The notes under the pieces: generated by a model
Told to the model about the DNA's origin: nothing
The model's database searches: none
The model's input: the letters and a program-made list of their open reading frames with translations, nothing else
Shown: positions 1 through 18,597 of the stretch, piece after piece
Layout: each line of letters starts with the position of its first letter
Numbering within the stretch: the first letter of the stretch is position 1
Translations under genes and position numbers: made by a program
Assembly (NCBI GenBank): GCA_027491415.1
Contig: JAOZFH010000055.1
Coordinates: 1 to 64,000, forward strand
Direction: 5' to 3'
DNA from: Thermoproteota archaeon
GTDB lineage: Archaea; Korarchaeota; Korarchaeia; Korarchaeales; Korarchaeaceae
Length of the DNA stretch: 64,000 nucleotides

Positions 1-551
1 TAAAGCCAAAAGACAGAGTCGTCCGGAATGTTTCCAGATAAGTAGGATTTCGCAAGGCGGAGGAGGGCTGACTTGTTCCACGCCCTCAGCCCGGAAGTAA
101 CGTCGGTGACCTTCATCTTAGTCAACCATGTGACTACCGTAGATGAAAAAGCCCTTCCGGCCTGCTTGAGTATGGAGTCGTGATCATTGAAGTCTCCCTC
201 AACGTATCTTGAGCCTATTGCTATGTCTGCATTTCCGCGGAGAACCGGCTCTAGGAGCTTTGGAAGGTCTCTCGCCCTGTGTTGACCGTCGCCGTCAATC
301 TTCAGCAGAAAGTCGTACCCCTCCCTGATCGCTAAGAGGTAGCCCGCGAGAATCGCCATGGCTCCTCCCATGTGGAACGGTAGAGAGATTACCCTGGCCC
401 CCGCTTTACTTGCCAGAATCGGTGTGTCATCGCTCGAGCCGTCGTCCACCACCACAACGTCGTAGCCCCGGTTGAGGTCCAGAACATCTTCCACAACTTG
501 AGCTATGGTGGGCGCCTCGTTGTAGGCCGGGATCATCACTAGAACCTTCAT
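1..551 (-). CDS. Glycosyltransferase family 2 (DPM1-like), 3' end outside window
   Basis: Not in the ORF track. Manual translation from ATG at 551: MKVLVMIPAYNEAPTI...VVVDDGSSDDT...KIDGDGQH...IAIGSRY...TDVTSGLRAW, the classic GT2/DPM motifs. Confidence 0.9.
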   Translation of the reverse strand, partial: MKVLVMIPAYNEAPTIAQVVEDVLDLNRGYDVVVVDDGSSDDTPILASKAGARVISLPFHMGGAMAILAGYLLAIREGYDFLLKIDGDGQHRARDLPKLLEPVLRGNADIAIGSRYVEGDFNDHDSILKQAGRAFSSTVVTWLTKMKVTDVTSGLRAWNKSALLRLAKSYLSGNIPDDSVFWL

Positions 552-859
552 TAGATCACACCCCTGTACGCTGTCCCTCGCTCCTCAACGTACCCCACCA
601 CACTTACATAGATGTGAACGCCTCCCATTATTGCATTAAACTTAAGTTCACTCACTGACCAAATTCGGGCTATAAGTCGCAGCAGCTGTAGTGTGTGTGC
701 GCATTCACAAGGGACCTGAAATTCATCTGAGCTAATGGACAATATCGTAGGGTTCGATTGGCCCGGCAGCCTTCTGACAACATCTCGTTAGTAGCCGCAT
801 TACGCAACGGCTCTACAACAATTTCTCTGTACCTGAGAAGCACAAGGTGTGCAATAATA

Positions 860-1951
860 TCACATATGTCCAAATTCGTTCATTATTATGGAAGTAATTC
901 TTTCCGACGCGCGCCCATCACCGAGAATCCCAGGGGGCGGTCTCTGCGTAGCCCTTTTTTGCAAATCGAAGTAGGCCATAACGAGCCTGTCAACATCCAC
1001 ATCAACCAACTTTACCCATCCTGTTTGGACCAGCTCAATCCACTCCGTCCTATCCCTAAGGACTATGACTGGCTTGCCAAGAAGATATGCCTCCCTCTGA
1101 ACCCCTCCCGAGTCTGTCACCACAATACTGGAGCAATTCAGGAGGCCGACAAAGTCTATGTAATCTAAAGGTTTTGTTAGTATTAAATTTTCAAGACTCG
1201 TCAAGGTGTTCATTAAACCCAGGTTCTTCAATGCTCTAAAAGTTCTCGGGTGAACAGGAAATACTATTTTCGTAAACTTCGAAAGCTCTCTTATCCCGCT
1301 AACTACCTTCGCTAGGCGGTTCGGATTATCCACATTTTCAGCTCTGTGAACCGTAAAAACTAAATATCTTGAACATTCAAGGTCTAGTTCCTCAGTTATC
1401 TTAGAATTCTTTATTTCATCTATCCATTTATATAGTACATCAACATGCACATCACCTGTCAAAAATATTTTTCCTAGAACTCTCTCTTTTCTCAAATTAT
1501 TTTCGGACTGTGGCGTGGGCGCAAATAGAAACGTTGAAATGTGATCCGTTACCCTCCGGTTGATTTCTTCTTGCATTTTAATGTCAAAGGACCGCAAGCC
1601 TGCCTCTACGTGCGCCACGGGAATCCCTGCCTTAACAGCGGCGAGTGCACCCCCCATGGTCGAGTTGGTGTCTCCGTAAACGACAACTAAGTCAGGTTTG
1701 ATCGACATTAGGTGCGATTCGGCTCTCTTGATAAGCTCACCAAGCTGATAGCCTTGAGTGCCTGACCCTACACCAAGGTATATATCCGGGTCTCGGAGCT
1801 CAAGCCTATCGAAGAACGCCTGTGACATTTCATAGTCATAATGTTGTCCAGTATGAATTACTATGTGTTCGAATTTTTCATCAAAATAATCAATAACGGC
1901 AGCAAGCTTAACAAAATTGGGCCTCGCGCCCACGACGGAGGTAACGATCAT
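860..1951 (-). CDS. wecB: UDP-N-acetylglucosamine 2-epimerase (non-hydrolysing)
   Basis: VGARPNFVK, HTGQHYD, YGDTNST, HVEAGLRS, EEINR, TDSGGVQREA, RDRTEW motifs. Confidence 0.95.
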   Translation of the reverse strand: MIVTSVVGARPNFVKLAAVIDYFDEKFEHIVIHTGQHYDYEMSQAFFDRLELRDPDIYLGVGSGTQGYQLGELIKRAESHLMSIKPDLVVVYGDTNSTMGGALAAVKAGIPVAHVEAGLRSFDIKMQEEINRRVTDHISTFLFAPTPQSENNLRKERVLGKIFLTGDVHVDVLYKWIDEIKNSKITEELDLECSRYLVFTVHRAENVDNPNRLAKVVSGIRELSKFTKIVFPVHPRTFRALKNLGLMNTLTSLENLILTKPLDYIDFVGLLNCSSIVVTDSGGVQREAYLLGKPVIVLRDRTEWIELVQTGWVKLVDVDVDRLVMAYFDLQKRATQRPPPGILGDGRASERITSIIMNEFGHM

Positions 1952-2125
1952 ATATCACCTTCCCGTCCCTCTCCTCCAAAAAAAGATTGTCAGCGAACTC
2001 CGGCCTTTATTCAGACTGTGTAAGGCCCCAAAACCCTCAGTTGTGTATACTGAGGTCAAGTAAGATTGCCGATCCACTGGCCAAGCTGGGGAGTGATAAC
2101 CGCTGCCTTTGTACCTAACATTATG

Positions 2126-3268
2126 TCAGAATACTGCTAGGGCCTCTCTATATATGGCATCTAGATCCCTAAGAACCCTGTCCCATGAGAAATTCTTCTC
2201 CACCGCCAGCCGAGCAGACTCTCCAATCCTTTTCCTGAGGTTCGAATCTCGTAAGAGAATTGACAGTGCCTCAGCAAGTCTCAAGGGGTCCCCCGGTGGT
2301 ACGAGAAGCCCGTTCTTCCCATTGATCACCACCTCTCTAACGCCTGGAAGGCTCGACGCCACCACAGCCTTCCCTGCGGCCATCGCCTCCAACAGGGCCC
2401 TAGGCATCCCTTCACTAAGAGAGGGTAGGACGAATACCTCTGCCCTAGAGAGTATGCTTGGAATCCTTTCGTGGGGAACGGCATCGCGGACAGTTATAAG
2501 CCCCTCTAGGGCCTCCTCTCTGACCAGGTTCTCAATGAACCTCCTCCTCGGACCTCTCCCGACCAGCAGAAGTCTAAAATCCAGTCCTTTTTCATTCGAT
2601 AATATCTTAGCTGCCCGGATCAGCACCTCAAGCCCCTTCTCCTTAACAAACCGGCCGTACCACACCACCAGACCAGGTAATGGCCTTCCCCCTGAGGCGA
2701 ACATGGTTAAGTCCACCGGAACGGGGACGACCCTTATCTTCTCGGGACTCAGCGAGGCCAGTTTGGAGACTCGCTCTGCATCCGATCTGGTCAAGCATAT
2801 AACGAACTTTGCTCCACGCAGGATACGTCTCCCGAGGGTTTTGAGATATGCGGTCTGTGCCAGATCTACGAAAGCGCCCCGACGAACTCTGAATCCGTGC
2901 ACGGTAACTACGTACGGTATCCCCAAGCGTGATGCAGCCTTATAGGCTTGATAGCTAGTCAGGAAGAGGTGCGAGTGTACGTGCAGAATCGTGGGGCTAA
3001 TTAACTCGATGTACTCTCCCAGCCTAGGAATGTACGGATACTCTGTCACCCAGGGCCTCAGCCCCAAGTTGAAGCCAGGTAACCTCAAGCAGACTAAATT
3101 TTCTCCCAGCTGCTCCTTCTCAGGCTTTCTTACCTTTGGGCTCCACGCAACGAGGGTCACTTTATACCGGGCGGACTGCCTTTTGGAGAGTCCGAGAGCA
3201 AAGAATGGGTCGCCTACGGTGTCCCTGGGAGAAATATGACATAGGTGCATAACGTGCGTGCACATCAA
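2126..3268 (-). CDS. Glycosyltransferase family 4
   Basis: YVVTVHG, YGRFVKEKGL, LPSLSEGMPRALLEAMAAG (EX7E), FSW C-terminus. Start codon uncertain. Confidence 0.9.
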   Translation of the reverse strand: MMCTHVMHLCHISPRDTVGDPFFALGLSKRQSARYKVTLVAWSPKVRKPEKEQLGENLVCLRLPGFNLGLRPWVTEYPYIPRLGEYIELISPTILHVHSHLFLTSYQAYKAASRLGIPYVVTVHGFRVRRGAFVDLAQTAYLKTLGRRILRGAKFVICLTRSDAERVSKLASLSPEKIRVVPVPVDLTMFASGGRPLPGLVVWYGRFVKEKGLEVLIRAAKILSNEKGLDFRLLLVGRGPRRRFIENLVREEALEGLITVRDAVPHERIPSILSRAEVFVLPSLSEGMPRALLEAMAAGKAVVASSLPGVREVVINGKNGLLVPPGDPLRLAEALSILLRDSNLRKRIGESARLAVEKNFSWDRVLRDLDAIYREALAVF

Positions 3269-3408
3269 GTGACTGAGTATAGCGCGTCTTTCGCTTTATT
3301 TAGTTGGTCCATTTACGAGTCACGAAACGACATTAGGAGCAACCGAGGCAACCCCATGGGTGTGTAAACAGGAAATTGGGTCGTATTCACGATCGGAGGG
3401 CAGAGAAA

Positions 3409-4641
3409 ATGTCCCAGAAGGTCTGCTTCTTTACGGGCTTCGGGCCAGTCCCAAACAAGACGGCTGCCTGGAGGAGGGTGGGATACTGGGCGTGCCACCT
3501 AGCGAAGGAGGGGTACGATGTCGTGGTCATCTCTTCCATAGATGTAAAGGGAGAGGACGTGACGGTAGGCTCGAGGGAATTGAAAGAAAACCTTAAAATC
3601 TACAATACATGGATGCGAATTAATTCAAATTCTCTTCCGGCATATATATTCAATACATTATCCTCCTTTCTAGTAATCCCTCCAATATTTCTATTGGAGA
3701 GGCCGCGGGTGGCGATTTTATCGGTTCCCAGTAGGGAAGGGATCTTTGCTGCGTTCATTGGAGCGAAACTCGTGGGGGCTAAGATAGTTATAGACTACAG
3801 AGACGAGTGGGAGGAATATCTTATAACTCATAGTAAAAATAGGATAAAACGTGTCATATTTAGACTAGTTAAGATATTAACGTTTTATATCTACAAGCGT
3901 AGCAACATGGTCATCGCAGTGACTCCTTTAATTCAGGAGAAGCTCCACAAACTACTACCCAGTAATGAGGTTATTTTAATACAAAATGGGGCCGACACCT
4001 CCGTGTTTTACCCCAGGAGAAAAAGTGAAGTTCGGGCGTTACTGGGAGTCCGGCCCAACGGACTCGTTCTCGTTTACACTGGATTCATCGGCAAGTACTA
4101 CGATTTGGAAACAGTCATTTCAGCCATTTCTATCGCGAAAGCTAGGGGTGTCGAAACTTCCCTGCTGGTAGCAGGCTGGGGAGAGGATGCAGCACGCATT
4201 AGGGAATTAGCACAGAGGGCGGGTGTGGACCTAAGGTATTTTGGGCCTGTGGACGATGATGAGATGTTGGCTAAGATCATATCGTCTGGAGATGTGGGCA
4301 TCATCCCGTTTAGGGACGAGGAGCTCTGGAGCAGTGCCCTCACTACGAAGTTCTTCGAGTACGCAGCGTGCGGGCTTCCGGTAATCGCCCTAGCTAGGGA
4401 CCACTGGCTTCTGGCAAGAGTCATTAGAGAGAACGATGTCGGGCTGGTCGTACCGCCCGAGAGACCCTCGGCGCTCGCAGAGGCCATATGGCGACTCTCT
4501 AATGATCTCGACCTCGCTAGAGAGATGGGGGCAAGAGCCAGGAGGATGATTCTAAGGAGCTATAGCAGGGAGGCTTTGGCGAAGAAATTCCTTCAAAGTC
4601 TCGTCGCACGTGGGATTGTGGAGCCCCTCGAGCGGAGGTAA
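3409..4641 (+). CDS. Glycosyltransferase family 4 (WbuB-like)
   Basis: IDYRDEW, NGADTSVF, YTGFIG, TKFFEYAACGLPVI. ATG at 3409 follows GGAGGG. Confidence 0.9.
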   Translation: MSQKVCFFTGFGPVPNKTAAWRRVGYWACHLAKEGYDVVVISSIDVKGEDVTVGSRELKENLKIYNTWMRINSNSLPAYIFNTLSSFLVIPPIFLLERPRVAILSVPSREGIFAAFIGAKLVGAKIVIDYRDEWEEYLITHSKNRIKRVIFRLVKILTFYIYKRSNMVIAVTPLIQEKLHKLLPSNEVILIQNGADTSVFYPRRKSEVRALLGVRPNGLVLVYTGFIGKYYDLETVISAISIAKARGVETSLLVAGWGEDAARIRELAQRAGVDLRYFGPVDDDEMLAKIISSGDVGIIPFRDEELWSSALTTKFFEYAACGLPVIALARDHWLLARVIRENDVGLVVPPERPSALAEAIWRLSNDLDLAREMGARARRMILRSYSREALAKKFLQSLVARGIVEPLERR

Positions 4642-8623: not shown

Positions 8624-8729
8624 CTGTTGGTGTGCCAGGGGCCTTTTTTAACCTTATGAGCTGTGGAGGCAGGGCATTTTGGGCGTCGAATTTCGCGCGC
8701 GAATTTAAGTCGGCAAAGTGAACCATTCA

Positions 8730-9161
8730 TTAGGATTCGGTTTTCACAGACCTAATCTTGATAGCTAGTCCCGAAGATAGGTCCCTGAAAAAGCCCGAGT
8801 GCCTTGCTAACATCTTTAGGTCTAATTTCCTGTCCCTCAGCTCATCGGGCATTACCCGTGGTATGCCCCCCACGATGGGATACCACCTCCCGCACTCTCT
8901 GCAAACCAGAATACCCTCTACTATCTGCCTTGCCTCACAGGACGCGCAATCTTCTGGTGAGGGGGTTGGGGTTCCCTGATCCTTGGCTCTCGCCCCCAAC
9001 TTCGTGTCAAATAGGGCGCAGTACCACTCGCATCTCCTCTCACTGGGCCCGCGCCTGCCTGAGTCCGAGAACCTCTCTGAAAACACGAACAGCCTGAGGG
9101 GAGTGTCCTTATGATACGGGCAAACAAGCCTATCTAGGAGACTTCTCCTCACTTCGCTCAC
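8730..9161 (-). CDS. Trm112-like protein
   Basis: LLDRLVCP...EGILVCRECGRWYPIVGGIPRVMP is the Trm112 signature, with a Cys-rich insert (CEWYC, CASC). Confidence 0.8.
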   Translation of the reverse strand: MSEVRRSLLDRLVCPYHKDTPLRLFVFSERFSDSGRRGPSERRCEWYCALFDTKLGARAKDQGTPTPSPEDCASCEARQIVEGILVCRECGRWYPIVGGIPRVMPDELRDRKLDLKMLARHSGFFRDLSSGLAIKIRSVKTES

Positions 9162-9819
9162 CCTGCTTGACGAATTTCATCACCAGCCAGTAACCCAGCA
9201 TGACTCGACCTAGCACGTTCTGTATGAGAAGCCAGAGCCTGACCGGTAGGATCCTAAAGGGTCCCCACAGCGTAATATAAGGCAGGTTGACAATGTGCAG
9301 CCTAGATACCTGCCTATATCCGTCGGGCAGGAGGCCCGTGAGGTGTTTTTCGTCCATGGAGAGAAGGTGTCCGTATCTGGGCGTAGGCCTTCCACAATGG
9401 ACGCACTTATAGTAAACGATCTTCTCCTTATATGGAATAGATATTAGGATTGTTCCGCCTTTCGTGAGTACCCTGTCAGCCTCTGCTACGGAGGCGAGCT
9501 GACTCTCCTTGGGCATATGTTCTAGCAACTCAAGCATAGAGACCGATTCGAACGAGGAGTTCCTGAACGGTAGCATCTCAGCACTGGCCTGAACAAGCTC
9601 AACCTGCCAGCCAAACCTCTCTCTGGCCGTCTCAAGGGCTTTGTCGTCTATGTCTACGGCTACCACGTATTCCACAACTTCTGATATCGCCGATGTCATG
9701 TCACCCTCTCCGCACCCGATGTCAAGGAGAGAGCGTGGACGTGGTTCTTTGAGTAGGAGCTTAATTACTTCGGCTCTCCGCCTCTGTTTTTCTTTCTCAT
9801 AAGATTCAATGGAGAGCAA
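9130..9819 (-). CDS. Class I SAM-dependent methyltransferase
   Basis: LLDIGCGEG, AVDID, ASAEMLPFRNSSFE, ELLEH motifs plus a CVHC insert. TTG start after GGAGGGTGA. Confidence 0.9.
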   Translation of the reverse strand: MLSIESYEKEKQRRRAEVIKLLLKEPRPRSLLDIGCGEGDMTSAISEVVEYVVAVDIDDKALETARERFGWQVELVQASAEMLPFRNSSFESVSMLELLEHMPKESQLASVAEADRVLTKGGTILISIPYKEKIVYYKCVHCGRPTPRYGHLLSMDEKHLTGLLPDGYRQVSRLHIVNLPYITLWGPFRILPVRLWLLIQNVLGRVMLGYWLVMKFVKQGERSEEKSPR

Positions 9820-10145
9820 TCCAAGTCACCCTCCCCAAGCCAATTGCCTGGGTCAGGGGGAAACTCCTAAAAAGGAGCCCAGCGCTATCCTATTGCTGCA
9901 GCGAGAGGCTCACGATTTTTCTTTTCCCCACATTCGATTAGCATTTTAAGTAATTTATATTGGGTAGTAATGTATTAGTGAATTAACGTTATTCGTGACT
10001 TCAAAAAGTATAAAAATCAGCTGGCATAGTTCATCTGGTAGAACTCGTATAGATAGAAATATGCTTAAGAAGGTAGCGCCCGTGTGCCTTGTCTTGGCAG
10101 AATAAGGGTAACAAGTTGTGCGTTCTGGAGAAAGGTGAGCTGTAG

Positions 10146-11162
10146 TTGCCGGTAATCGACCGTAATGTGAGCGCGATTAAAAGATTGTTTGCGAGAGAGT
10201 TTTGGTGGATAGTGTATACCATAAGCAGGCTAATAGCTGGCTCTGGAAGCGAGGCAGACGCTATAGTTATCTCCGGATCTTCCAGATCCGGCACGACGTG
10301 GCTAATGGAGATTTTAGAAACTTTACGGGGATATAGGTCTATATTTGAGCCCCTAAATAGAGAGTGGTACAAAGAAGTAAGAAATATACACCTAGAAGGG
10401 TACCCCCGTCCTTACATTCCACCGGATGTAGAGAACCCCGATCTAGAAAATTACTTAGGTAGGGTCTTCCAAGGTAAAGTATCCGGACATGTGGAGCTGA
10501 GGCCACGCCTAAAAACCATTTTCAAGTTCCTAACTTCACCTAAAGTGGTTGTCAAATTTATAAGAGCAAATAGACTATTGCCGTGGATTTATAATAGATT
10601 TAGAGTGAGAGCTATTTATCTAATGATAAGGCACCCCTGCGCAACTATAGCATCTCAGTTAAATATTGGTTGGCGGATCGATCCTCGAGTTTGGACTCCA
10701 GTTGTGAAAGAGCTCTTTAACCATGACCCGGATGTGAGGGATGAGCTGCTTAGAATCATAAAGAGACCTGAGGACCCGGTAGAGCCGTGGGCACTGATGT
10801 GGGCTCTTGATTACTACATTCCTCTTTCTATGCCGAGACCACACCCGTGGTACACAGTGGTTTACGAGAAACTCCTGCTAGACGGTGAGTCGGAGCTAGG
10901 GAACATCTTTCGTTGGATTGGTGAAACTCCCTCAGATGCAGCTTACGCTAGGCTCGCGAGACCCAGCTCTGCGGCCAACAAATCAGTTCGGAAGGTCGGG
11001 GAGATCAATCCATCCGATCAACTGATTAAATGGAAGCGCTCATTAAGCTTAGATCAAATAAAAAGAATTCTTAGAATAACGGAGCTAGTTGGCCTTACTT
11101 TTTACACAGAAAGCGAGGAACCTGACTACGTAGAGTTAGCCAAGTGGAGTAGAGTGGGTTAG
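10146..11162 (+). CDS. PAPS-dependent sulfotransferase
   Basis: 5'-PSB loop ISGSSRSGTTWL, FEPL, 3'-PB motif MIRHPCATIASQ, VVYEKLL, C-terminal KWK. Confidence 0.85.
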   Translation: MPVIDRNVSAIKRLFAREFWWIVYTISRLIAGSGSEADAIVISGSSRSGTTWLMEILETLRGYRSIFEPLNREWYKEVRNIHLEGYPRPYIPPDVENPDLENYLGRVFQGKVSGHVELRPRLKTIFKFLTSPKVVVKFIRANRLLPWIYNRFRVRAIYLMIRHPCATIASQLNIGWRIDPRVWTPVVKELFNHDPDVRDELLRIIKRPEDPVEPWALMWALDYYIPLSMPRPHPWYTVVYEKLLLDGESELGNIFRWIGETPSDAAYARLARPSSAANKSVRKVGEINPSDQLIKWKRSLSLDQIKRILRITELVGLTFYTESEEPDYVELAKWSRVG

Positions 11163-11226
11163 GCATCCAGAATTAAAATACGCGGTGGTGATGTAATAAA
11201 AAGTCTACTGAATTTTTGGCCAGCCC

Positions 11227-12156
11227 CTAATGATAAAAAATGTAAGATTCCCACCTTCTGTATGTTTCCAGAAAATAGGGGTCTCCTGTCATTTGATAGA
11301 GCCGCAGAAGCAAGAGCACATGGAGAAAGTGGTACCTAGATGCAGATCTTTTGCCAAGCAAACTATAATATGTCCAGTTACCCGAATCATACAAATTGAG
11401 ATAGGCCCGTACAGTATCGAGCCCCTCGGCGTACAGCCGCTCTGCATCTGGATCCTTTGTAACGACATAAAAGTCGTGTATACCAATCAAGGCAAATATG
11501 AAACCATTAAGTACGTGTGGCTTTTTCTCACAAACGTACTCTAGATAAAAGGGGCGACCCTGTTCATCTAGCAGCGTGACACCCCCCTCCTCGACACCCC
11601 TGCGAAAAGCCTCAAGAGCCAGCCTTGCTGAACTTAAGTATGTATCATTGTGCGTGACGATGTATGCTCTCACAAGGGCAGAGATTGCCTGGCCCTGAGC
11701 CATGCCGGATATCCAGGGGGCTCTGCACCCGTACCTAGGAAAATCAAAATCGTAGACCCAAACGCCCAAGCCATCCTCCACTACCTGATTAGTTACTAAC
11801 CAATTTACATGTCTTAAAAATCGTTCTAGGTAAGTAGTGTTTCCCGTCAGGACAAAATCGTCGAAGTTATAGAGAGCGAACTCTGCTATGAACACTGGGT
11901 TGTATTGAACACCGATATCGCCTCCATAATCTACGACAACTATCCCCTCCTCATCAAATGATTTCCAGTCTACGAAATTTACGGCATAAATTAGGTAAAG
12001 CCACTCGAACTCTTTGCCCTCCCACTGGGACTGTAGGGTTAATCCAGCATGGCTGGAGCGCATACCCAAACCATATCCGGCCAGAAAAGTGAGTAAAATT
12101 AAGACGGCAATTAAGAATATTGTGTTAACTCTTAGCCGCCATTGCGCCCTCGTCAT
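11227..12156 (-). CDS. D-glucuronyl C5-epimerase family protein with N-terminal TM anchor
   Basis: WISGMAQGQAISALVRAY, FYLEY, HVLNGFIFALIG, YDSGNWTYYSL and RYHFLH match the C5-epimerase C-terminal domain. Residues ~12-31 are hydrophobic. Confidence 0.85.
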   Translation of the reverse strand: MTRAQWRLRVNTIFLIAVLILLTFLAGYGLGMRSSHAGLTLQSQWEGKEFEWLYLIYAVNFVDWKSFDEEGIVVVDYGGDIGVQYNPVFIAEFALYNFDDFVLTGNTTYLERFLRHVNWLVTNQVVEDGLGVWVYDFDFPRYGCRAPWISGMAQGQAISALVRAYIVTHNDTYLSSARLALEAFRRGVEEGGVTLLDEQGRPFYLEYVCEKKPHVLNGFIFALIGIHDFYVVTKDPDAERLYAEGLDTVRAYLNLYDSGNWTYYSLLGKRSASRYHFLHVLLLLRLYQMTGDPYFLETYRRWESYIFYH

Positions 12157-12668
12157 AACGACGGTTTAGTTTCCAAGAAAAATTTAAGTCCGTACTCGCG
12201 CTTGATGCACGCCAACTAAATCCATTTTCCAAGTCTAACCTTTTAAATTTCTGTCATAGAAGACAAACCTCGATTTTTCGAGAAATTTTGAGGAGAAACT
12301 CCGCTCCGGGACCTTTGAGTTGTGATTAGTTGAAGGGCGTTTTGTGCGCGCTCCCTGCAAGAGGCCACAGGCGGTCAACGAGCGACTTCACGGCTTGTGA
12401 TGTGGCTAGGAATTGCGCTATCCGGGCCTGCGTGTATGCTGCCGGTCTGCTGTGAATATAAACATATCCTATGGCTTTATGACCCTTTGAGCTCAAAGTC
12501 TACTCTTCCATGCTTTAAAACGTAAAACCCACGATCTTAGGACTCTCCGGCAGAGAAAAATCCGAGGTCTATTGGGAGATGGCACCGTACCTGAAAAAAG
12601 ATCAAGAACTAGGTCCTCCTACCTCTGCTCCAAGCAAGACTGAGCGAACCGTAGGAGAGATATTAATA

Positions 12669-12692
12669 TTTAATTAATTACATATCATTACA
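12669..12692 (+). promoter_or_regulatory. TATA box and tandem ATTACA repeat upstream of leaderless RHH-sat operon
   Basis: TTTAATTA at 12669-12676, about 25 nt before GTG 12701. ATTACA at 12677-12682 and 12687-12692, 10 bp apart. Confidence 0.5.
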
Positions 12693-12700
12693 ACACCCTC

Positions 12701-12919
12701 GTGCCCAAGAGACGCTACACGACGATCTCCATCCCTATCCCGCTCTACGAGAGGGTGAAGAAGATGATTGAGGGCACTGGCTTCTCTTCGGTCAGCGACT
12801 ACGTCACCTACGTGCTGAGAGAGCTCGTCGCGTCGTACGAGGAGTCGAAGCTCGACTTCACCAGAGAGGACGAGGAGCGCATCAAGCGCAGGCTCAGGGC
12901 CCTCGGCTATCTGGACTGA
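12701..12919 (+). CDS. Ribbon-helix-helix (CopG-like) protein with RLRxLGYL tail
   Basis: YTTISIPIPLYERVKK...FSSVSDYVTYVLRE, ending EERIKRRLRALGYLD. Confidence 0.85.
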   Translation: MPKRRYTTISIPIPLYERVKKMIEGTGFSSVSDYVTYVLRELVASYEESKLDFTREDEERIKRRLRALGYLD

Positions 12920-12936
12920 GCCGGAGGTGATCTGGC

Positions 12937-14085
12937 GTGGTGTCCAGGCCGCACGGCGGCAGGCTGGTAAACAGGGTGGCCTCCGACTCCAGGAGAGAGA
13001 AGATACTCGCTGAAGCAGCCGAACTCCCCCAGATACCGATAAGCGTGGAGAAGGCAATTGAGGCCGAGAACATCGCCAGGGGGGTCTACAGCCCCCTGGA
13101 GGGGTTCATGCTGAGCGAGGACTTCGAGTCCTGCCTCACCAGGATGAGGCTGGCGAGCGACGTTCCCTGGACCCTCCCGGTAGTCCTGGACGTGGAGGAG
13201 GGCAGCCTGGTCGACATCTCTGAGGGCGACGAGGTCCTCCTGACCCTCGACGGCTCTCCAACAGCCTTGATGGAGGTTGAGGAGATCTACAGGTACGACA
13301 AGAGGCGGACCGCCGTCTCGGTGTTCGGCACCGACAGCCCAGAGCATCCCGGAGTCCGCCGAACCCTGAAGATGGGCGACCTCCTGCTGGGCGGCAGGAT
13401 AACGCTAGTGGGCTCCGTGCCGAACCCCTACGAGAGGTACACCCTCTGGCCCATTGAGACCCGCGTGCTGTTCAAGGAGAAGGGCTGGAAGACCGTCGTC
13501 GGCTTTCAGACCAGGAACGCCCCGCACCGGGGCCACGAAGAGCTTCAGAAGACTGCCCTGGCCTTCGTCGACGGCGTGTTCATCAACCCCGTCATAGGGA
13601 GGAAGAAGCCCGGGGACTTCAGGGACGATGTGATCCTGGAGGCCTACAGGGCCCTCATCCGGCACTACTACCCGAGGGACACCGCCGTGCTCGCGATCCT
13701 CAGGTACGAGATGAGGTACGCCGGCCCGAGGGAGGCTGTGCACCACGCGATCATGAGGAAGAACTTCGGGTGCACCCACTTCATCGTCGGGAGGGACCAC
13801 GCGGGAGTCGGCAACTTCTACCCGCCCTACGCCGCCCAGGAGATATTCAGGGAGTTCCCCGACCTCGGGGTCACGCCGCTCTTCTTCAGGGAGTTCTTCT
13901 ACTGCAGGAGGTGCGGCGGCCTAGCCAACGAGAAGACATGTCCCCACCCAGAGTCCGACCGGGTGAGGTTCAGCGGCACGAAGATCCGCGAGCTTATAGA
14001 GAGGGGAGAGGTCCCGCCGCCGGAGGTCATGAGGCCCGAGGTGGCGGAGGTGATCCTGAGCTTCGAGGACCCCTTCGTCAGGTGA
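12937..14085 (+). CDS. sat: Sulfate adenylyltransferase (ATP sulfurylase)
   Basis: PHGGRLVN, QTRN, HRGH, MRYAGPREA, GRDHAG, Zn site CRRC...CPH. Confidence 0.97.
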   Translation: MVSRPHGGRLVNRVASDSRREKILAEAAELPQIPISVEKAIEAENIARGVYSPLEGFMLSEDFESCLTRMRLASDVPWTLPVVLDVEEGSLVDISEGDEVLLTLDGSPTALMEVEEIYRYDKRRTAVSVFGTDSPEHPGVRRTLKMGDLLLGGRITLVGSVPNPYERYTLWPIETRVLFKEKGWKTVVGFQTRNAPHRGHEELQKTALAFVDGVFINPVIGRKKPGDFRDDVILEAYRALIRHYYPRDTAVLAILRYEMRYAGPREAVHHAIMRKNFGCTHFIVGRDHAGVGNFYPPYAAQEIFREFPDLGVTPLFFREFFYCRRCGGLANEKTCPHPESDRVRFSGTKIRELIERGEVPPPEVMRPEVAEVILSFEDPFVR

Positions 14086-14097
14086 GGAGGGAGGGCG

Positions 14098-15132
14098 ATG
14101 GATGTGAGGCTGCCGGAGCCAGACGAGCTCGGGGACACGCTCGTCCTGCACCACTGGGACGCCGACGGCGTGGCGAGCGCGAGCCTGATTCTCGACTACC
14201 TCGGGGACTACGCCGAGCTCTACGTTCCGCCGCTGGGATTCTACTGGCTCGACTCCCAGGCGGCCAACGAAATACGGGACCTGGGGACGTTCGACACGCT
14301 GATGGTGCTCGACATGGCGCTTCCCGTAGAGTCCATAGAGAGAGCCGCCTCCGCGGCCGGGGCCGGCAGGGTGGTGCTGGTGGATCACCACGTGAGGCCG
14401 AGGGAGCGCTACCCGGCCTCCTGGGTCCCCCTGGTCGACGTAAGGCAGCCATCCGCGAGCTGGCACCTGACGCAGCTGCTGGGAGTTCAGCCTGACCTTC
14501 GATCGATCCTGGGAATTGCCGGCGACCTGGGCCCCACGCTCCAGTCTCACCCAGTCTACCCCCAGGTGATAGAGGTCCTGGAGTCTCTGGGAATTGGTGT
14601 AGTGGAGCTCGAGAGGCTGGCCGAGCTTATCGACGCCAACTACAGGGTCGGAGACAGGGAAGGCGTGAGGGACGCGGTCTTCGTGCTCAGCAGGGGACAC
14701 AGGGATCCGAGGTCGCTCCTCGATCTGAAGAAGTGGGTAATAAGGCACAGATCCGCCGAGGCCGAGGTCGAGAGGGTCGTGAGGGAGGCCAGCGTGGAGG
14801 ACTTCGGCAGCGTCGTCTACGTGGAGTTCGAGTCCCCTCACCTCCTGATCTCCACCGTGGGGAGGAGGTTCGCCTGGTCGAGAGAGGGCGTTGCCGTGCT
14901 CGTGCTCAACTCCCGGTGGAGGAGGGGGTACGCTCAAGTCTACTCAAGGGTCCACGGGCTCGACCTAGACCTCACGACCCTGGCCGAGATGGCCAGGGCC
15001 CGTGGCTACAGGGCCGGTGGGAAGCGGGAGGCCGTCGGCGTCATCCTGCCCGAGCTGGAGGCGAGGGAATTCGTCCGGCGCGCCCTCGACTGGCTGATGT
15101 CGGCCGCTCGGGAAGGGAAAGGAGGTGAGTGA
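14098..15132 (+). CDS. DHH-family phosphoesterase (candidate PAP 3'-phosphatase)
   Basis: HHWDADG, MVLD, LVDHH, AGD and GG of DHHA1. Substrate inferred from context. Confidence 0.8.
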   Translation: MDVRLPEPDELGDTLVLHHWDADGVASASLILDYLGDYAELYVPPLGFYWLDSQAANEIRDLGTFDTLMVLDMALPVESIERAASAAGAGRVVLVDHHVRPRERYPASWVPLVDVRQPSASWHLTQLLGVQPDLRSILGIAGDLGPTLQSHPVYPQVIEVLESLGIGVVELERLAELIDANYRVGDREGVRDAVFVLSRGHRDPRSLLDLKKWVIRHRSAEAEVERVVREASVEDFGSVVYVEFESPHLLISTVGRRFAWSREGVAVLVLNSRWRRGYAQVYSRVHGLDLDLTTLAEMARARGYRAGGKREAVGVILPELEAREFVRRALDWLMSAAREGKGGE

Positions 15133-16522
15133 GTTGGCAGGAGAGAGGGTCATGGTCATAGGGCTGGACTCGGCGCCGCCGTCGCTGGCGTTCGAGAGGT
15201 TCCTGCCCAAGATGCCGAACCTTTCCGAGCTCCTCGACGGGGCCAGGTACGGCCCCTTGAGGAGCTGCCACCCGCCTATAACCGTGCCTGCCTGGGCCGT
15301 GATGGCCACGAGCCTCACTCCGGGCGAGCTGGGGATGTACGGCTTCAGGCACAGGAAGCCCGGCGAGTACAGGGAGTACTACCTTGTGACCTCGAGGAAC
15401 CTGACGAGGCCAGCGGTGTGGGATCACGCCGCCAGGGAGGGGAAGAAAGCCTTGCTGATAGCCTTCCCGCCCTCCTACCCGCCCCTCAAGGTTCAGGGGT
15501 GGGTGATCAGCGACTTCCACACCCCCTCGACGGCCAAGAACTACACCCACCCGCCGTGGCTCAGGCTGGAGGTCGAGAGGGTCGCGGGAGGCCCCTTCAC
15601 GCACGACGTGGAGTTCAGGGTTGAAGACCGCGGACCGCTGGTCGAGAGGCTCTTCGAGATGACCAGTCAGCACCTCCGGGTCGCCGAGCACCTGGCGAGG
15701 ACCAAGAGGTGGGACCTCATGTGGTACGTCGAGATCGGCCTGGACAGGCTCCACCACGCGTTCTGGAAGTTCTTCGACCCCAGCCACCCGAGGCACGTCC
15801 CGGACAGCGAGTTCGCCGACGTGGCCGAGCGCTACTACCGCCTCCTGGACGAGGGGATAGGTAGACTCGTTCAGGCCGCCAAGGACGCCTCAATACTCGT
15901 CGTCTCGGACCACGGGGCGAAGGCGATGACCGGCGCCTTCGCGATCAACGAGTGGCTGGCGGACAACGGCTACCTGGCCCTGGAGGAGAGGCCCACGGAG
16001 CAGACGGGCCTCGCGAAGGCGAAGGTGGACTGGGACAGGACCGTTGCCTGGGGGTGGGGCGGCTACTACTCCAGGATCTTCGTGAACCTCAGGGGGAGGG
16101 AGCCACGGGGCAGGGTGAGCCCGGAGGACTTCGAGTCCACCCTGGCCCAGCTGGTGGACGACCTGAGGCGAGTCCGGGTTCCTGGGGGCGGGAGCCTCGG
16201 CGTAGAGGCCCACAGGCCGGCCGAGATCTACCCAGAGGTCAGGGGGGACGCGCCGGACCTCATGGTGTACTTCGGGGACCTGAGCTGGCGCGCCGCGGGC
16301 ACGATGGGCCACGGCAGGTGGTTCCTCCCCGAGAACGACACCGGCCCGGACGACGCGGTCCACGACTGGGACGGGATCTACCTGATTCGCGACCCGGAGG
16401 GGAGGGTGGAACCTGGAGAGCTTGGCGCCACGATCTACGACGTGGCGCCCACGATCCTGTCCCTGATGGGGTTGGGGATACCGGATGGGCTGAGAGGAGA
16501 ACCCCTCCTAGACGTGAGCTGA
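15125..16522 (+). CDS. Alkaline phosphatase superfamily (type I phosphodiesterase/nucleotide pyrophosphatase-like)
   Basis: IGLDSA, PPITVPAW, DRLHH, VSDHG, H-DWDG, IYDVAPTIL. Alternative start TTG at 15134. Confidence 0.88.
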   Translation: MSELAGERVMVIGLDSAPPSLAFERFLPKMPNLSELLDGARYGPLRSCHPPITVPAWAVMATSLTPGELGMYGFRHRKPGEYREYYLVTSRNLTRPAVWDHAAREGKKALLIAFPPSYPPLKVQGWVISDFHTPSTAKNYTHPPWLRLEVERVAGGPFTHDVEFRVEDRGPLVERLFEMTSQHLRVAEHLARTKRWDLMWYVEIGLDRLHHAFWKFFDPSHPRHVPDSEFADVAERYYRLLDEGIGRLVQAAKDASILVVSDHGAKAMTGAFAINEWLADNGYLALEERPTEQTGLAKAKVDWDRTVAWGWGGYYSRIFVNLRGREPRGRVSPEDFESTLAQLVDDLRRVRVPGGGSLGVEAHRPAEIYPEVRGDAPDLMVYFGDLSWRAAGTMGHGRWFLPENDTGPDDAVHDWDGIYLIRDPEGRVEPGELGATIYDVAPTILSLMGLGIPDGLRGEPLLDVS

Positions 16523-16537
16523 GGAGGTGCCTGGAGC

Positions 16538-17098
16538 ATGGCGGGAACAGTCGGGCGGTCGGGGAGGGGGTTCGTGATCTGGCTGACCGGACTCCCGGCC
16601 GCCGGGAAGACCACGCTCGCGAGGGTCCTGGCCAGGAGGCTCAGGGAGATGGGCTGGCGCGTCGAGACGCTCGACGGCGACGAGGTCAGGAGGTGGCTCA
16701 GCCCGGAGGCCGGGTTCAGCAGGGAGGACAGGGAGCGACACCTGAAGAGGGTGGCTCACGTCTCCAGGCTCCTGGCGAGGAACGGCGTCGCGGTCGTCGC
16801 GTCCTTCGTGTCACCCTACAGGAGGGTCAGGGAGGAGGTCAGGAAAATCGTCGAGGGGGAGGGGCTGAAGTTCGTGGAGGTCTACGTTAGGTGCTCCGTG
16901 GAGACCGCCATGAGAAGGGATCCCAAGGGCCTCTACAGGAGGGCGCTCAGGGGCGAGATACAGAACATGACGGGAGTTCAGGACGCCTACGAGGAGCCGG
17001 AGAACCCAGAGGTGATCGTCGACTCGGAGAGGATGAGCCCGGAGGAGGAGGCGGAGGAGGTCTTAGCCGCGCTCAGGAGGCTGGGAATCTCCGCCTGA
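16538..17098 (+). CDS. cysC: Adenylyl-sulfate (APS) kinase
   Basis: WLTGLPAAGKTT, LDGDEVR, VSPYR, RDPKGLY, TGVQDAYEEP. Confidence 0.96.
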   Translation: MAGTVGRSGRGFVIWLTGLPAAGKTTLARVLARRLREMGWRVETLDGDEVRRWLSPEAGFSREDRERHLKRVAHVSRLLARNGVAVVASFVSPYRRVREEVRKIVEGEGLKFVEVYVRCSVETAMRRDPKGLYRRALRGEIQNMTGVQDAYEEPENPEVIVDSERMSPEEEAEEVLAALRRLGISA

Positions 17099-17144
17099 GC
17101 GCCGGACCAACCTCTTTAAGTGCGCGGGCGGGGGGTGGCGAGAG

Positions 17145-17366
17145 GTGAGCCGAGTGGAGGGCGAGAAGGTGACGCTGGAGATCTCAAAGGAACTCTACGA
17201 GAGGGCCAAGAAGTGGGTGGAGAGCACGTCAGACTTCTCCTCCGTGGAGGAGCTCATAGAGTTCCTGCTCGGGGAGGTCCTCTCTGAGGAGTCCGGGGAG
17301 CAGGTCTACTCCCCCGAGGAAGAAGAGGAGATCAAGGAGAGGCTCAGGAGCTTGGGGTATCTGTGA
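17145..17366 (+). CDS. Ribbon-helix-helix protein with RLRxLGYL tail (paralog of 12701..12919)
   Basis: VTLEISKELYER...FSSVEELIEFLL...EEEIKERLRSLGYL. Own TATA-like TTTAAG at 17115-17120. Confidence 0.8.
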   Translation: MSRVEGEKVTLEISKELYERAKKWVESTSDFSSVEELIEFLLGEVLSEESGEQVYSPEEEEEIKERLRSLGYL

Positions 17367-17388
17367 GCCCCTCGGAGCCGGGGTGACC

Positions 17389-18597
17389 TCAGCCGAGCCC
17401 CTCCGCGGGTTCCCGTCCCGGCCTCGCCCTGTCGACCAGCCTGGCGAGGATCGCGGCCGAGGACCTGTAGATCACGAGGGAGGCGGCGAGGCCAGCCACC
17501 CCTGCTACCCCTCCCAGGAGCACGATCGAGGCGGCGAGGATCGACATCGCCACCAGGTTCACGGCCAGCACGCGAATCGGCCTCTCCTCGCTCAGCTTGC
17601 CGGCGGCCCATATGCTGAAGGCGGCTCCGGGGACGACCGCCAGGGAGGCTATCTGGGCGGCGGTGGCGCTCACGGGGTAGAACTTGGGGAACAGGAGTTC
17701 TATCGCGACGGGCGACAGGGCCGCCCCCGCCGCGGCGGCGAGCGTCGAGATCCCCATCCCGATCAGCTCCGCCTTTCGGGTTCGGCGGCCGGACGACTTC
17801 TCGGGGAGCAGATAGTTCCTGAGGCTGGTCGGGACGACGCCGAGGGCCGCGTAGAACTGGAAGGCCAGCTGGTAGTACCCGAGCGTCTCGTCCCCATAGA
17901 GGCCGCCGATGAGGACCTTGTCGAACTTCATCACCGCCGAGGACGTCATGGCCATCGCCAGCGCCGCGAGCGAGAACTTGATGTGGGTCCTCACCGAGGT
18001 GAGGCCCCTCCTCGCCTCCCTGAGCTCGCGGAGGATCCAGGCGGAGGAGACGAGGTTGGCCAGGGCGAAGCCTAGGAGAGCGCCGTCTACCCCGAGCGCC
18101 GGGACTGCCGCGAACATCCACGCCAGCATCCCGAGCTTGCTCGACACCTGCAGGAGGGCGTACCCCCTGTAGTCCCTCCTACCGAGCCTCTCGCTGGCTG
18201 CGATCATGTAGAGGGAGTACCCAAGCGTGATGAGCGGCAGGGTCGGGTGTAGGACCACGAGGGGGAGTCCCAGGGCCAATCCAGCGGCGGCAGCGGTCAG
18301 AGCGGCCCCTGAGGCAATGTGCCTGTCTCCCTTCGGGAGGTAGGCCTGGAGAGTGGCTGGCATCCCGAAGGCCGCAACGCTGGAGGCGAGGATGGCGATG
18401 GAGGTAAGGTAGTTGACTCTCCCGTAATTCGAGACCGTCAGGAGCTTTGCGAGCAAAAACCACGTCAGCGCGCCGAGTACGACGGCCGAGGAGTTCCCCG
18501 CCGTTACGAGGATCAGCCCCCTCTGTCTCCGTATCCCCCTAGCGAAGCCCCTGATCTGGGCCGGGATGAGTTCTGGAAGTTCCAAGGCCCCCATCAC
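17389..18597 (-). CDS. Oligosaccharide flippase (Wzx/MOP superfamily)
   Basis: About 12 TM helices, YGRVNY, and DKVLIGGLYGDETLGYYQLA, typical of Wzx. Confidence 0.8.
   Translation of the reverse strand: MMGALELPELIPAQIRGFARGIRRQRGLILVTAGNSSAVVLGALTWFLLAKLLTVSNYGRVNYLTSIAILASSVAAFGMPATLQAYLPKGDRHIASGAALTAAAAGLALGLPLVVLHPTLPLITLGYSLYMIAASERLGRRDYRGYALLQVSSKLGMLAWMFAAVPALGVDGALLGFALANLVSSAWILRELREARRGLTSVRTHIKFSLAALAMAMTSSAVMKFDKVLIGGLYGDETLGYYQLAFQFYAALGVVPTSLRNYLLPEKSSGRRTRKAELIGMGISTLAAAAGAALSPVAIELLFPKFYPVSATAAQIASLAVVPGAAFSIWAAGKLSEERPIRVLAVNLVAMSILAASIVLLGGVAGVAGLAASLVIYRSSAAILARLVDRARPGREPAEGLG

Follow-up and report, generated by a model that had tools for sequence, protein, structure and literature searches.

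Bases 1-18,597 of the 64,000-nucleotide stretch of DNA from an uncultured archaeon analysed here (the window) hold a block of glycan and sulfation genes that is a composite, in which a low-GC glycan island adjoins a genus-conserved operon for the supply of 3'-phosphoadenosine 5'-phosphosulfate (PAPS). The island encodes a homologue of the animal glucuronyl C5-epimerase GLCE (family PF06662) and a PAPS-type sulfotransferase. This locus is one of two found with a catalytically intact GLCE-type epimerase beside a PAPS-type sulfotransferase, and the only one of the two that also adjoins complete genes for PAPS supply and for recycling of 3'-phosphoadenosine 5'-phosphate (pAp). The explanation that seems best to us, and which we hold with slightly more belief than doubt, is that the island was acquired horizontally, now parts AlkP2 from copG-sat-pApase-AlkP-cysC, the two divergently oriented arms of a sulfation locus conserved in the genus, and works with the neighbouring operon as proposed below. 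Its product would most likely be a short, dolichol-linked, sulfated and methylated oligosaccharide with a bacillosamine-type sugar and N-acetylmannosamine (ManNAc) or its uronic acid (ManNAcA), in which a hexuronate is epimerised after export. A sequence-only reading had taken the block for one contiguous unit that builds, sulfates, methylates, exports and epimerises a glycosaminoglycan (GAG)-like glycan; its pairing of a PAPS-type sulfotransferase and a GLCE-type epimerase beside genes for PAPS synthesis and pAp removal stands, whereas the single unit has to be given up and the GAG-like character finds no support.

The window comprises positions 1-64000 of contig C28 (71,952 bp) of genome G000, a single metagenome-assembled genome (MAG) of 1.78 Mb in 63 contigs that is 96% complete. 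It was compared with 40 genomes that are kin to G000 and thus non-independent, four of them of the same genus, with 78 genome loci of the sulfotransferase family and with 80 metagenome loci that hold the nearest relatives of the epimerase (together 660 kb; 32 loci of at least 8 kb). Neighbour tallies were built on simple open reading frame (ORF) calling.

The island and the conserved operon

The GC content is 45-55% in window bases 1-12,000 and in bases 11,001-14,688 of contig C8, against 62-69% elsewhere, and this is the most extended low-GC stretch of the genome. C8 is taken to be the left neighbour of C28 because its last 206 nt match window bases 1-206 in the same orientation (97.1% identity, 6 mismatches, no gaps); residues 116-183 of the glycosyltransferase (GT2) cut by the contig end recur there at 97% identity. 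The sequence-only reading had proposed to inspect the same contig left of base 1, but the contig begins at that base. The six mismatches suggest co-assembled strain variants that differ within the island, and such variation may explain the assembly break at this place. Contig C58, which ends in a truncated dehydrogenase gene, was rejected as the left neighbour: its end has 65.5% GC and no overlap, whereas C8 overlaps. The low-GC part of C8 runs from about position 11,284 to the contig end, and the island as a whole measures about 16 kb (window bases 1-12,600 plus 3.4 kb of C8).

The insertion can be read from the same-genus genome G004, where AlkP2 (87% identical), the gene next to the island on C8, and copG (93%) stand divergently about 130 bp apart within syntenic flanks (short-chain dehydrogenase/reductase, 94%; ThiF, 95%); about 16 kb of foreign DNA have thus entered this place in G000. 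The nearest proteins to the island sulfotransferase come from Thermoplasmatota and Thermococci (42-46% identity), in keeping with transfer. A tRNA gene was considered as the integration site and none is present in the window; integrases and flanking repeats were not searched for.

To the right of the island lies the PAPS operon (copG-sat-DHH-AlkP-cysC, bases 12,701-17,098), in which the sequence-only reading had overlooked copG; the copy in G004 also lies directly upstream of sat. The four PAPS genes keep their order in the same-genus genomes G004, G003 and G001, with protein identities of 80-94% for Sat, AlkP and CysC and 60-83% for the DHH protein (in G004, 92, 94, 85 and 83%, respectively). 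In G003 the operon is followed by genes for a flippase, MgtE, a coiled-coil protein and UbiA, the same synteny as in the window, and the flippase at that site is 57% identical; it belongs to the conserved flank, outside the island. The operon is genus core, then, and the glycan genes are a low-GC insertion missing from these three genomes. A TauE/SafE-family anion exporter follows cysC in G003 (locus L028, 3954-4727) and is absent from that place in the window.

The sulfotransferase and the use of PAPS

The sulfotransferase stays below the Pfam cut-offs (PF13469, 24.1 bits against 27; PF00685, 20.6 against 22) and is recognised through its family, which comprises at least 189 proteins, is mainly archaeal (Thermococcus, Thermoplasmatota and Asgard groups), bears the name sulfotransferase in records of Thermococcus, Thermoplasmatales and Asgard archaea, and in most homologues carries precomputed PF13469 and/or PF00685. 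When a profile of 24 members was compared with the PDB, all 40 matches with E < 0.02 were PAPS-dependent sulfotransferases (best 1.9e-6). Invariant in the 24 sequences are G44, R47, G49, T51 and W52 (GxxRxGTTW) and R162, H163, P164, C165 and S170 (RHPCxxxxS), and the former motif matches, in alignment, the PKSGT(H/T)W loop known from sulfotransferase structures; we take the two to be the 5'-phosphosulfate-binding loop and the 3'-phosphate-binding motif. An N-terminal hydrophobic helix is absent from the window protein and from all 119 homologues examined for one. PAPS is cytoplasmic, and sulfation by an enzyme that lacks a membrane helix should therefore precede export.

Across the 78 loci, members of this family stand near GT4 glycosyltransferases (23), AlkP-like proteins (7), WecB (7) and nucleoside diphosphate (NDP)-sugar dehydrogenases (3). 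CysC is nearby in four, three of them (L033, L036 and L040) among the 19 loci with archaeal titles, and Sat together with DHH in one (L040). The family, then, is regularly found in glycan clusters and, among archaea, repeatedly beside the PAPS operon.

G000 contains no match to PF01507 or PF01077, and no PAPS, adenosine 5'-phosphosulfate (APS) or sulfite reductase was found in it. A hidden AprA-type reductase was considered and rejected, the sole full-length FAD_binding_2 protein being SdhA, with SdhB beside it (13 partial PF00890 matches, of at most 213 of 414 positions, were left out). The earlier statement that no PAPS or APS reductase is present extends, by the searches with PF01507, PF01077 and FAD_binding_2, to the whole genome and supports PAPS as a sulfo donor. 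The island sulfotransferase is the sole sulfotransferase-like gene detected in G000 with PF13469 and PF00685, and a profile search found no PF00884 sulfatase-like protein.

The product pAp inhibits sulfotransferases and needs to be removed. The DHH protein, marginal in Pfam, aligns over residues 14-319 with the solved PAP phosphatase of Methanothermococcus thermolithotrophicus and is predicted to be a pAp phosphatase; its gene has the same position as the characterised pApase gene of the Pyrococcus yayanosii cluster. The role of the AlkP protein is less apparent. It is the best-conserved gene product of the operon, its nearest named homologue is from 'Candidatus Korarchaeota archaeon' (71% identity), and sequence search found no solved relative. 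G000 has just two PF01663 genes, both at the sulfation locus, one inside the operon and one flanking the island. The glycan sulfotransferases of Halobacterium have an AlkP/sulfatase fold, and so the PF01663 proteins might be sulfotransferases rather than pyrophosphate (PPi) or nucleotide hydrolases; by analogy with Agl30 and Agl31, the lineage may have its own sulfotransferases in the AlkP-fold proteins that accompany sat and cysC throughout archaea.

Do island and operon work together? It could be that they are neighbours by insertion only, the island having landed by chance beside an operon whose purpose is something else, such as an assimilation route not yet recognised, the making of sulfonates or sulfolipids, or sulfation carried out by AlkP-fold proteins; the island sulfotransferase would then take PAPS from wherever its genes lie, or sulfate a non-glycan substrate. 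We regard this as unlikely. It would explain why G004, G003 and G001 keep the operon but lack the island, why no relative has a sulfotransferase homologue and why PF06662 and CysC are distributed independently, and it agrees with the treatment of such a cluster as a sulfate-assimilation cluster (PMC8268124) and with the presence in the window of a ComA-type phosphosulfolactate synthase, which requires sulfite. On the other side, no enzyme reducing PAPS, APS or sulfite was found in G000, the island sulfotransferase is the only PAPS-type consumer detected there, its family recurs beside cysC/sat/DHH in Thermococci (L033, L036 and L040), and glycan genes border the operon in all three genus members with enough flank (GT2 and a giant GT-C protein in G004, a flippase in G003, the island in G000). 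On balance, the island rather probably makes a sulfated glycan using PAPS from the neighbouring operon.

The window further contains, to the right of the block, three sulfur-related genes on the minus strand (Table 1). ComA requires sulfite, yet no PAPS, APS or sulfite reductase was found in the genome.

The GLCE-type epimerase

The PF06662 match spans profile positions 3-188 of 188, and residues 98-306 align with GLCE of zebrafish (4pw2, E 2.3e-27) and human (6hzz, E 2e-26). The catalytic residues of human GLCE, E499, Y500, N510, Y560 and Y578 (PMC13308652), all five have identical counterparts in the window protein (E206, Y207, N217, Y264 and Y275). In 120 family members the E, the N and each of the later two Y are present throughout, and the first Y in 111.

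A hydrophobic helix at residues 13-31, identified by hydropathy, follows R3, R7 and R9, and the positive-inside rule predicts that the catalytic domain is non-cytoplasmic. The closest full-length relatives (P0003-P0006, 42-46% identical) have an N-terminal helix preceded by 3-11 Lys/Arg, whereas of 119 family members just 14 possess a helix of this kind. The stretch from the membrane helix to the aligned helical domain is only about 65 residues long, and the aligned part is restricted to human positions 300-519 and zebrafish positions 361-577. Epimerisation outside the membrane, as the sequence-only reading had it, thus agrees with the predicted orientation, whereas the step order suggested by the analogy to heparan sulfate would not hold: sulfation should be cytoplasmic and epimerisation extracytoplasmic, the reverse sequence.

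Wzx-type glycan clusters with many amino-sugar genes and WecB are the regular setting of the epimerase subfamily. Its 80 loci contain GT4 (24), DegT aminotransferases (18), WecB (13), 4,6-dehydratases (9), methyltransferases (6), NDP-sugar dehydrogenases (4) and Trm112-like proteins (2), and the nearest neighbours of PF06662 (134 ORFs in 43 loci) include about 25 GT4, about 19 Wzx-type flippases, 8 hexapeptide transferases and 4 PMT_2 proteins. Locus L134 repeats most of the island, with an acetyltransferase (73% identity), DegT (57%), a dehydratase, a dehydrogenase and WecB (48%) beside PF06662, the dehydrogenase being placed between dehydratase and WecB. NDP-sugar dehydrogenase genes are likewise found in L187, L195 and L155.

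The protein is predicted to epimerise C5 of a chain-bound hexuronate, and its context favours ManNAcA as much as glucuronic acid (GlcA). That a uronate of the island glycan is C5-epimerised we put a shade short of an even chance; that this uronate is ManNAcA rather than GlcA is a tentative suggestion, with more doubt than support. Less likely still, taken as a whole, is the specific proposal that a short lipid- or protein-linked oligosaccharide reaches the enzyme outside the cell with its sulfate in place, and that the enzyme converts ManNAcA to N-acetyl-L-gulosaminuronic acid (L-GulNAcA) and not GlcA to iduronic acid (IdoA).

Alternatively, the PF06662 protein might be no uronate epimerase at all, but an outside-facing alpha/alpha-barrel protein that binds or cleaves glycans, or one whose substrate is a non-uronate sugar. 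The literature searched holds no assay of an archaeal PF06662 protein, the island has no dehydrogenase, and related archaea keep the gene in housekeeping contexts, beside a PAPS_reduct-ferredoxin gene (three genomes of one genus) or between AglB and PMT_2 (another genome). Against these stand the strict conservation of the residues with which GLCE removes the C5 proton and gives it back and the NDP-sugar dehydrogenase genes of the four cognate loci just named, which make this alternative improbable.

Two of these contexts deserve description in their own right. In G024 (L110, 9816-12519), G020 (L117, 7850-10572) and G022 (L118, 9725-12428), PF06662 abuts or overlaps a gene of 557-562 aa that joins a PAPS_reduct domain to a 2x[4Fe-4S] ferredoxin domain. 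This is a second, different link of PF06662 to adenylyl-sulfate-type chemistry; the three genomes are of one genus, and the pairing therefore counts as one event. In G025 (L111, 6641-11715) a 498-aa PF06662 gene lies between genes for the AglB/STT3 oligosaccharyltransferase and a PMT_2 (GT-C) protein, an arrangement in keeping with the gene's taking part, in that lineage, in protein glycosylation on the outer side. Other PF06662 genes of related archaea lie among housekeeping genes.

The uronate source and the anatomy of the glycan machinery

A UDP-sugar 6-dehydrogenase had been thought possible left of base 1; C8 has instead a UDP-GlcNAc 4,6-dehydratase, a DegT aminotransferase and an acetyltransferase, by sequence a bacillosamine-type amino-sugar trio. 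A candidate uronic-acid source is present elsewhere in the genome, in the form of two WecC-like NDP-sugar dehydrogenases, one on C17 and one at the very end of C58, neither linked to the island. Their top match is archaeal UDP-ManNAc dehydrogenase (380 bits, against 210 for AglM) and not UDP-glucose dehydrogenase. The island WecB, for its part, reaches only 64.6 bits with the NeuC model (cut-off 236).

In the island ORFs of both contigs, C28 and C8, Pfam finds no heparosan/hyaluronan-type synthase, Wzy or chain-length regulator. The transferases are a short GT2, a pair of GT4s and the GT-C protein, and this anatomy, with no polymerising synthase, Wzy or chain-length gene, fits a short lipid-linked oligosaccharide. 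The label 'glycosaminoglycan-like' finds no support at the locus; that the island product is a GAG-like polymer seems to us improbable. Taken literally, the earlier view would mean a sulfated, heparan-like GAG polymer built from GlcA and hexosamine, with conversion of its GlcA to IdoA, for which we see little chance. The GLCE-type catalytic residues are conserved, a bacterial epimerase of a 2013 study appears GLCE-like in mechanism by sequence alignment (as cited in PMC13308652), and a PAPS-type sulfotransferase is at hand; against this, the polymer-forming genes are lacking among the island's Pfam matches, both dehydrogenases resemble UDP-ManNAc rather than UDP-glucose dehydrogenase, WecB and the bacillosamine-type genes indicate other sugars, and the epimerase has no counterpart of the GLCE domains that form the long substrate cleft and the dimer.

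The largest island product, a giant polytopic protein without Pfam match, has about 11 N-terminal transmembrane helices, an outside domain of about 700 aa and a C-terminal anchor, judged by hydropathy. Its N-terminal 640 aa were modelled with AlphaFold2 on 31 sequences (predicted local distance difference test 85.5, predicted template modelling score 0.89). The top Foldseek matches of the model are AglB, STT3, DPY19, PglB and ArnT (E from 5e-5, template modelling score 0.40-0.44, probability 1.00), and GT-C enzymes account for 10 of 10 matches with E up to 0.001 and for 23 of 25 among the matches listed (to rank 30). The model thus points to a GT-C fold, found also in PMT and ALG enzymes, of the lipid-phospho-sugar-dependent transferase type that acts outside the membrane. 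D161 is invariant and H165 nearly invariant in the 31 sequences, which makes D161 a candidate for the catalytic acidic residue of the first outside loop. PTPS_related and DUF1616, sub-threshold look-alikes in a protein atlas (0.81-0.85), were superseded by the fold search. The public gene call starts 49 residues later, and the family has only 36 representatives among 1.84 billion proteins. In G004 the opposite flank of the PAPS operon (L026, 1-6639) carries a GT2 and two tandem giant GT-C homologues (30% identical; one of 1403 aa), and this rare family hence travels with the sulfation locus in the genus independently of the island.

Among solved structures the island GT2 is matched best by the dolichol-phosphate mannose synthase of Pyrococcus (5mlz, E 9.4e-13) and next by ArnC, and it resembles a polyprenyl-phosphate sugar synthase. 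Together, such a GT2 and the predicted GT-C enzyme would fit outside sugar transfer from a dolichyl-phosphate (Dol-P)-sugar. G000 also encodes AglB and an archaeal Nre.

Genes of the block

Profile searches of the window ORFs found all genes named in the sequence-only reading where it had placed them (Table 1). The matches are strong for WecB, both GT4s, the GT2 fragment, Methyltransf_11, the Trm112-like protein, PF06662, Sat, CysC and PF01663, and weak in Pfam for the sulfotransferase, the DHH protein and the flippase; the first two of these are upheld by the other evidence given above, and the flippase, with about 8 hydrophobic segments, remains weak. The genes of the Trm112-like protein and the methyltransferase overlap by 32 nt. 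The latter, whose best NCBIfam match is the mycofactocin oligosaccharide methyltransferase MftM (E 3.8e-15, far under the cut-off), is taken to be a putative sugar O-methyltransferase.

Table 1. Genes of the block, its continuation on contig C8 and sulfur-related genes elsewhere in the window (window positions unless C8 is named)
Feature	Position	Strand	Evidence or remark
GT2 glycosyltransferase, N-terminal 183 aa, cut by contig end	3..551	-	PF00535 E 3.5e-22
WecB, non-hydrolysing UDP-GlcNAc 2-epimerase (to UDP-ManNAc)	860..1951	-	PF02350 E 5e-103; TIGR00236 318 bits (cut-off 210)
GT4 (GT-B fold) glycosyltransferase	2126..3268	-	PF00534 E 9e-40; PF13439 E 3e-18
Second GT4 glycosyltransferase	3376..4641	+	PF13692 E 5e-17; PF00534 E 2.6e-15
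Giant polytopic membrane protein, 1368 aa	4517..8623	-	No Pfam match; predicted GT-C fold, N-terminal 640 aa
Trm112-like zinc-ribbon partner protein	8730..9161	-	PF03966 E 9e-10; NF038101 (Trm112_arch) E 2.4e-11, under cut-off
Class I S-adenosylmethionine methyltransferase (Methyltransf_11)	9130..9819	-	PF08241 E 3e-20
Cytoplasmic PAPS-type sulfotransferase	10146..11162	+	PF13469 and PF00685, both sub-cut-off; family profile against PDB
GLCE-type hexuronyl C5-epimerase homologue, 309 aa	11227..12156	-	PF06662 E 1.2e-52
CopG-like ribbon-helix-helix regulator, 72 aa, heads PAPS operon	12701..12919	+	RHH_1 weak, E 0.006
Sat, ATP sulfurylase	12937..14085	+	PF01747 E 7e-94; PUA_2 E 3e-51; NF003166 533 bits (cut-off 387)
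DHH-family pAp phosphatase (predicted)	14098..15132	+	PDB 8a8k E 1.3e-29
AlkP-superfamily type I phosphodiesterase / nucleotide pyrophosphatase	15125..16522	+	PF01663 E 7.5e-42
CysC, APS kinase	16538..17098	+	PF01583 E 1.4e-58; TIGR00455 206 bits (cut-off 139)
Candidate Wzx/MOP-type flippase	17389..18597	-	PF01943 E 1.7e-6, 28.1 bits (cut-off 28.2)
Remainder of GT2 (about 52 aa; about 236 aa in all)	C8, low-GC end		Residues 116-183 recur on both contigs, 97% identity
DUF2304 membrane protein	C8, low-GC end
Hexapeptide acetyltransferase	C8, low-GC end
DegT aminotransferase	C8, low-GC end		E 1e-115
Polysacc_synt_2 enzyme, UDP-GlcNAc 4,6-dehydratase type	C8, low-GC end		Solved relatives CapD (E 9e-70; UDP-GlcNAc 4,6-dehydratase/5-epimerase), Cap8E, WlaL
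AlkP2, second PF01663 protein, 66% GC, next gene beyond island	C8 9644-11200	-	Locus L208
Threonine-synthase-like pyridoxal-phosphate enzyme	42023-43279	-	Weak cysteate-synthase match
Sulf_transp membrane protein	45383-47059	-
ComA-type phosphosulfolactate synthase fused to winged-helix domain	47123-48199	-

A proposed pathway and its weighing

The island, as we picture it, would work as follows. The dehydratase, aminotransferase and acetyltransferase of C8 would make a di-N-acetylated 4-amino-4,6-dideoxyhexose and WecB UDP-ManNAc, from which one of the two unlinked WecC-like dehydrogenases would make a uronic acid, most likely UDP-ManNAcA. On the cytoplasmic face, the two GT4s would build a short oligosaccharide on dolichyl phosphate; the soluble sulfotransferase would add sulfate with PAPS from the neighbouring operon, the DHH enzyme clearing the inhibitory pAp, and the methyltransferase with its Trm112-like partner would add O-methyl groups. 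After export by the Wzx-like flippase, the membrane-anchored GLCE-type enzyme would invert C5 of the chain hexuronate, and the giant GT-C enzyme, fed by the Dol-P-sugar-synthase-like GT2, would add a sugar or move the chain to an acceptor. What the sequence analysis itself demonstrates is narrower: the identities of the genes, the folds, the catalytic residues, the insertion and the lack of known PAPS-reducing enzymes.

A number of observations weigh against this pathway. That island and PAPS operon lie side by side reflects one event, in one MAG, and the C8-C28 join is supported by one 206-nt overlap with its 6 mismatches. There is no UDP-sugar 6-dehydrogenase on C8 left of base 1 nor elsewhere in the island, although the cognate locus L134 has a uronate-forming dehydrogenase, and both dehydrogenase assignments elsewhere in the genome stay under curated equivalog cut-offs. 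AglB is encoded on contig C36, not on C28 or C8, and neither acceptor nor linkage type is given by the locus. The epimerase is without the N-terminal beta-hairpin (dimerisation) and central beta-sandwich domains of GLCE; its public gene call begins at Met32, which would remove the membrane anchor; and the absence, mentioned above, of an assay of any archaeal family member from the literature searched counts here too. Three same-genus genomes keep the PAPS operon with neither a sulfotransferase homologue nor a strong PF06662 match, so that the operon has another use there.

Recurrence, which the sequence-only reading had expected among relatives, points the same way. Strong PF06662 matches occur in 20 of the 40 relatives and CysC in 20, both in 9, PF06662 alone in 11, CysC alone in 11 and neither in 9, which amounts to independent occurrence; the two never lie within 20 kb on one contig (the same-contig cases are 97 and 271 kb apart), and a sulfotransferase homologue is present in 0 of the 40. 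Within the genus, CysC is found in three of the four genomes, strong PF06662 and the sulfotransferase in none. Twelve related archaeal PF06662 loci (±10 kb, tblastn) hold none of the window's other genes. Among the 80 epimerase-relative loci the sulfotransferase-family hidden Markov model finds at most one match, a weak one in L143, and Sat or CysC is found in none; the 25 families most often found next to PF06662 include none of sulfotransferases, and PF06662 is near the sulfotransferase family in one of 78 loci (L076). A general linkage of PF06662 to sulfotransferases or PAPS genes was rejected on these counts (1/78, at most 1/80, no association in the 40 relatives), and the combination of epimerase and sulfotransferase is rare.

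The exception, L076 (3062-19625), is one independent repeat of that combination. It is a one-strand bacterial Wzx/Wzy cluster in a Cloacimonadota MAG of 30.6% GC, with genes for Wzy, Wzx, GT4, sulfotransferase, GT4, PF06662, GT9, GT4, a polysaccharide deacetylase and WecB, and its deacetylase, sulfotransferase and epimerase together recall the logic of heparan sulfate maturation.

Significance and relation to known systems

If the ManNAcA reading is true, an archaeal PF06662 protein would for the first time have a function, the family would gain a new substrate, and the pairing of sulfation with epimerisation would have a prokaryotic model. As a small enzyme set with soluble domains, the locus bears on whether prokaryotic PF06662 proteins epimerise uronates besides GlcA, on the order of sulfation and epimerisation across the membrane, and on the role of the widespread archaeal sat-pApase-AlkP-cysC operon in organisms unable to reduce PAPS. 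The practical value is modest, as a source of thermostable epimerase and sulfotransferase candidates for the chemo-enzymatic synthesis of sulfated sugars.

Archaeal PF06662 candidates, including those of a korarchaeon, methanogens and Thermococcus, were listed in an in silico survey in 2011 (Raedts et al.; PMC3068255). They belong to the same family as the window protein and share its short architecture of signal or anchor plus C-terminal domain; the word 'sulfotransferase' occurs 0 times in the survey. The literature searched holds no report of an archaeal PF06662 protein beside a sulfotransferase.

The conserved operon has its closest described counterpart in Pyrococcus yayanosii, where cluster pych_17520-17560 comprises copG, ATP sulfurylase, DHH, type I phosphodiesterase and APS kinase genes (PMC8268124), the same five genes in the same order as in window bases 12,701-17,098. 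Its DHH enzyme was shown to be a pAp phosphatase and its phosphodiesterase was speculated to remove PPi; other archaea are reported to have a sulfotransferase gene next to their PAPS cluster, and TauE is reported nearby too (PMC8268124). What differs is the 16 kb glycan island with its own sulfotransferase immediately upstream of the operon and the second PF01663 paralogue that flanks it in G000.

A precedent for ManNAcA as the substrate comes from the Vibrio polysaccharide (VPS) of Vibrio cholerae, in which VpsA, VpsB, VpsK and VpsJ bring about the incorporation of ManNAcA and its C5-epimerisation to L-GulNAcA at the lipid-linked stage (PMC13463779). There, as proposed here, WecB and a UDP-ManNAc dehydrogenase feed a lipid-linked intermediate. 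VpsJ, in contrast, is proposed to be a new epimerase class with 2-epimerase-like fold similarity and not PF06662, and the described system is bacterial, undecaprenyl-linked and without sulfation (PMC13463779).

Animal heparan sulfate shares with the window the same two enzyme superfamilies, GLCE and PAPS-dependent sulfotransferases, and a single-pass epimerase whose catalytic domain is (here by prediction) non-cytoplasmic. It differs in having a polymer synthase, for which no counterpart was found in the island, and in carrying out both steps in the Golgi lumen, whereas sulfation here should be cytoplasmic and precede export. The window epimerase consists of the C-terminal helical domain only (309 aa, against solved chains of 527 and 585 aa), and the likely sugars are ManNAc(A) and a bacillosamine-type sugar.

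Sulfated, C5-epimerised glycans have been proven in archaea only in Halobacterium, by unrelated enzymes, and are otherwise a hallmark of animal matrices; such an archaeal glycan and its enzymes are thus already known (PMC12624080, PMC11980604). The N-glycan of Halobacterium salinarum, made by Agl25-Agl32, is a sulfated Glc-GlcA-IdoA-GlcA tetrasaccharide (PMC12624080), and it resembles the product proposed here in being a short archaeal glycan on dolichyl phosphate whose chain-bound uronate is C5-epimerised and which is sulfated, methylated, flipped and transferred. The window proteins are set apart from Agl30, Agl31 and Agl32 by the published descriptions. Agl32 is AGE/cellobiose-2-epimerase-like and lacks the GLCE catalytic residues (PMC13308652), of which the GLCE-type window protein has five, and Agl30 and Agl31 have a sulfatase/AlkP fold (PMC11980604), whereas the window sulfotransferase belongs to the PAPS-sulfotransferase fold. 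The Halobacterium cluster is anchored by aglB, which in G000 lies on another contig. In its working model, the epimerase and sulfotransferases act before flipping (PMC12624080); the window epimerase, by contrast, is predicted to face outward, so that epimerisation would follow sulfation and export.

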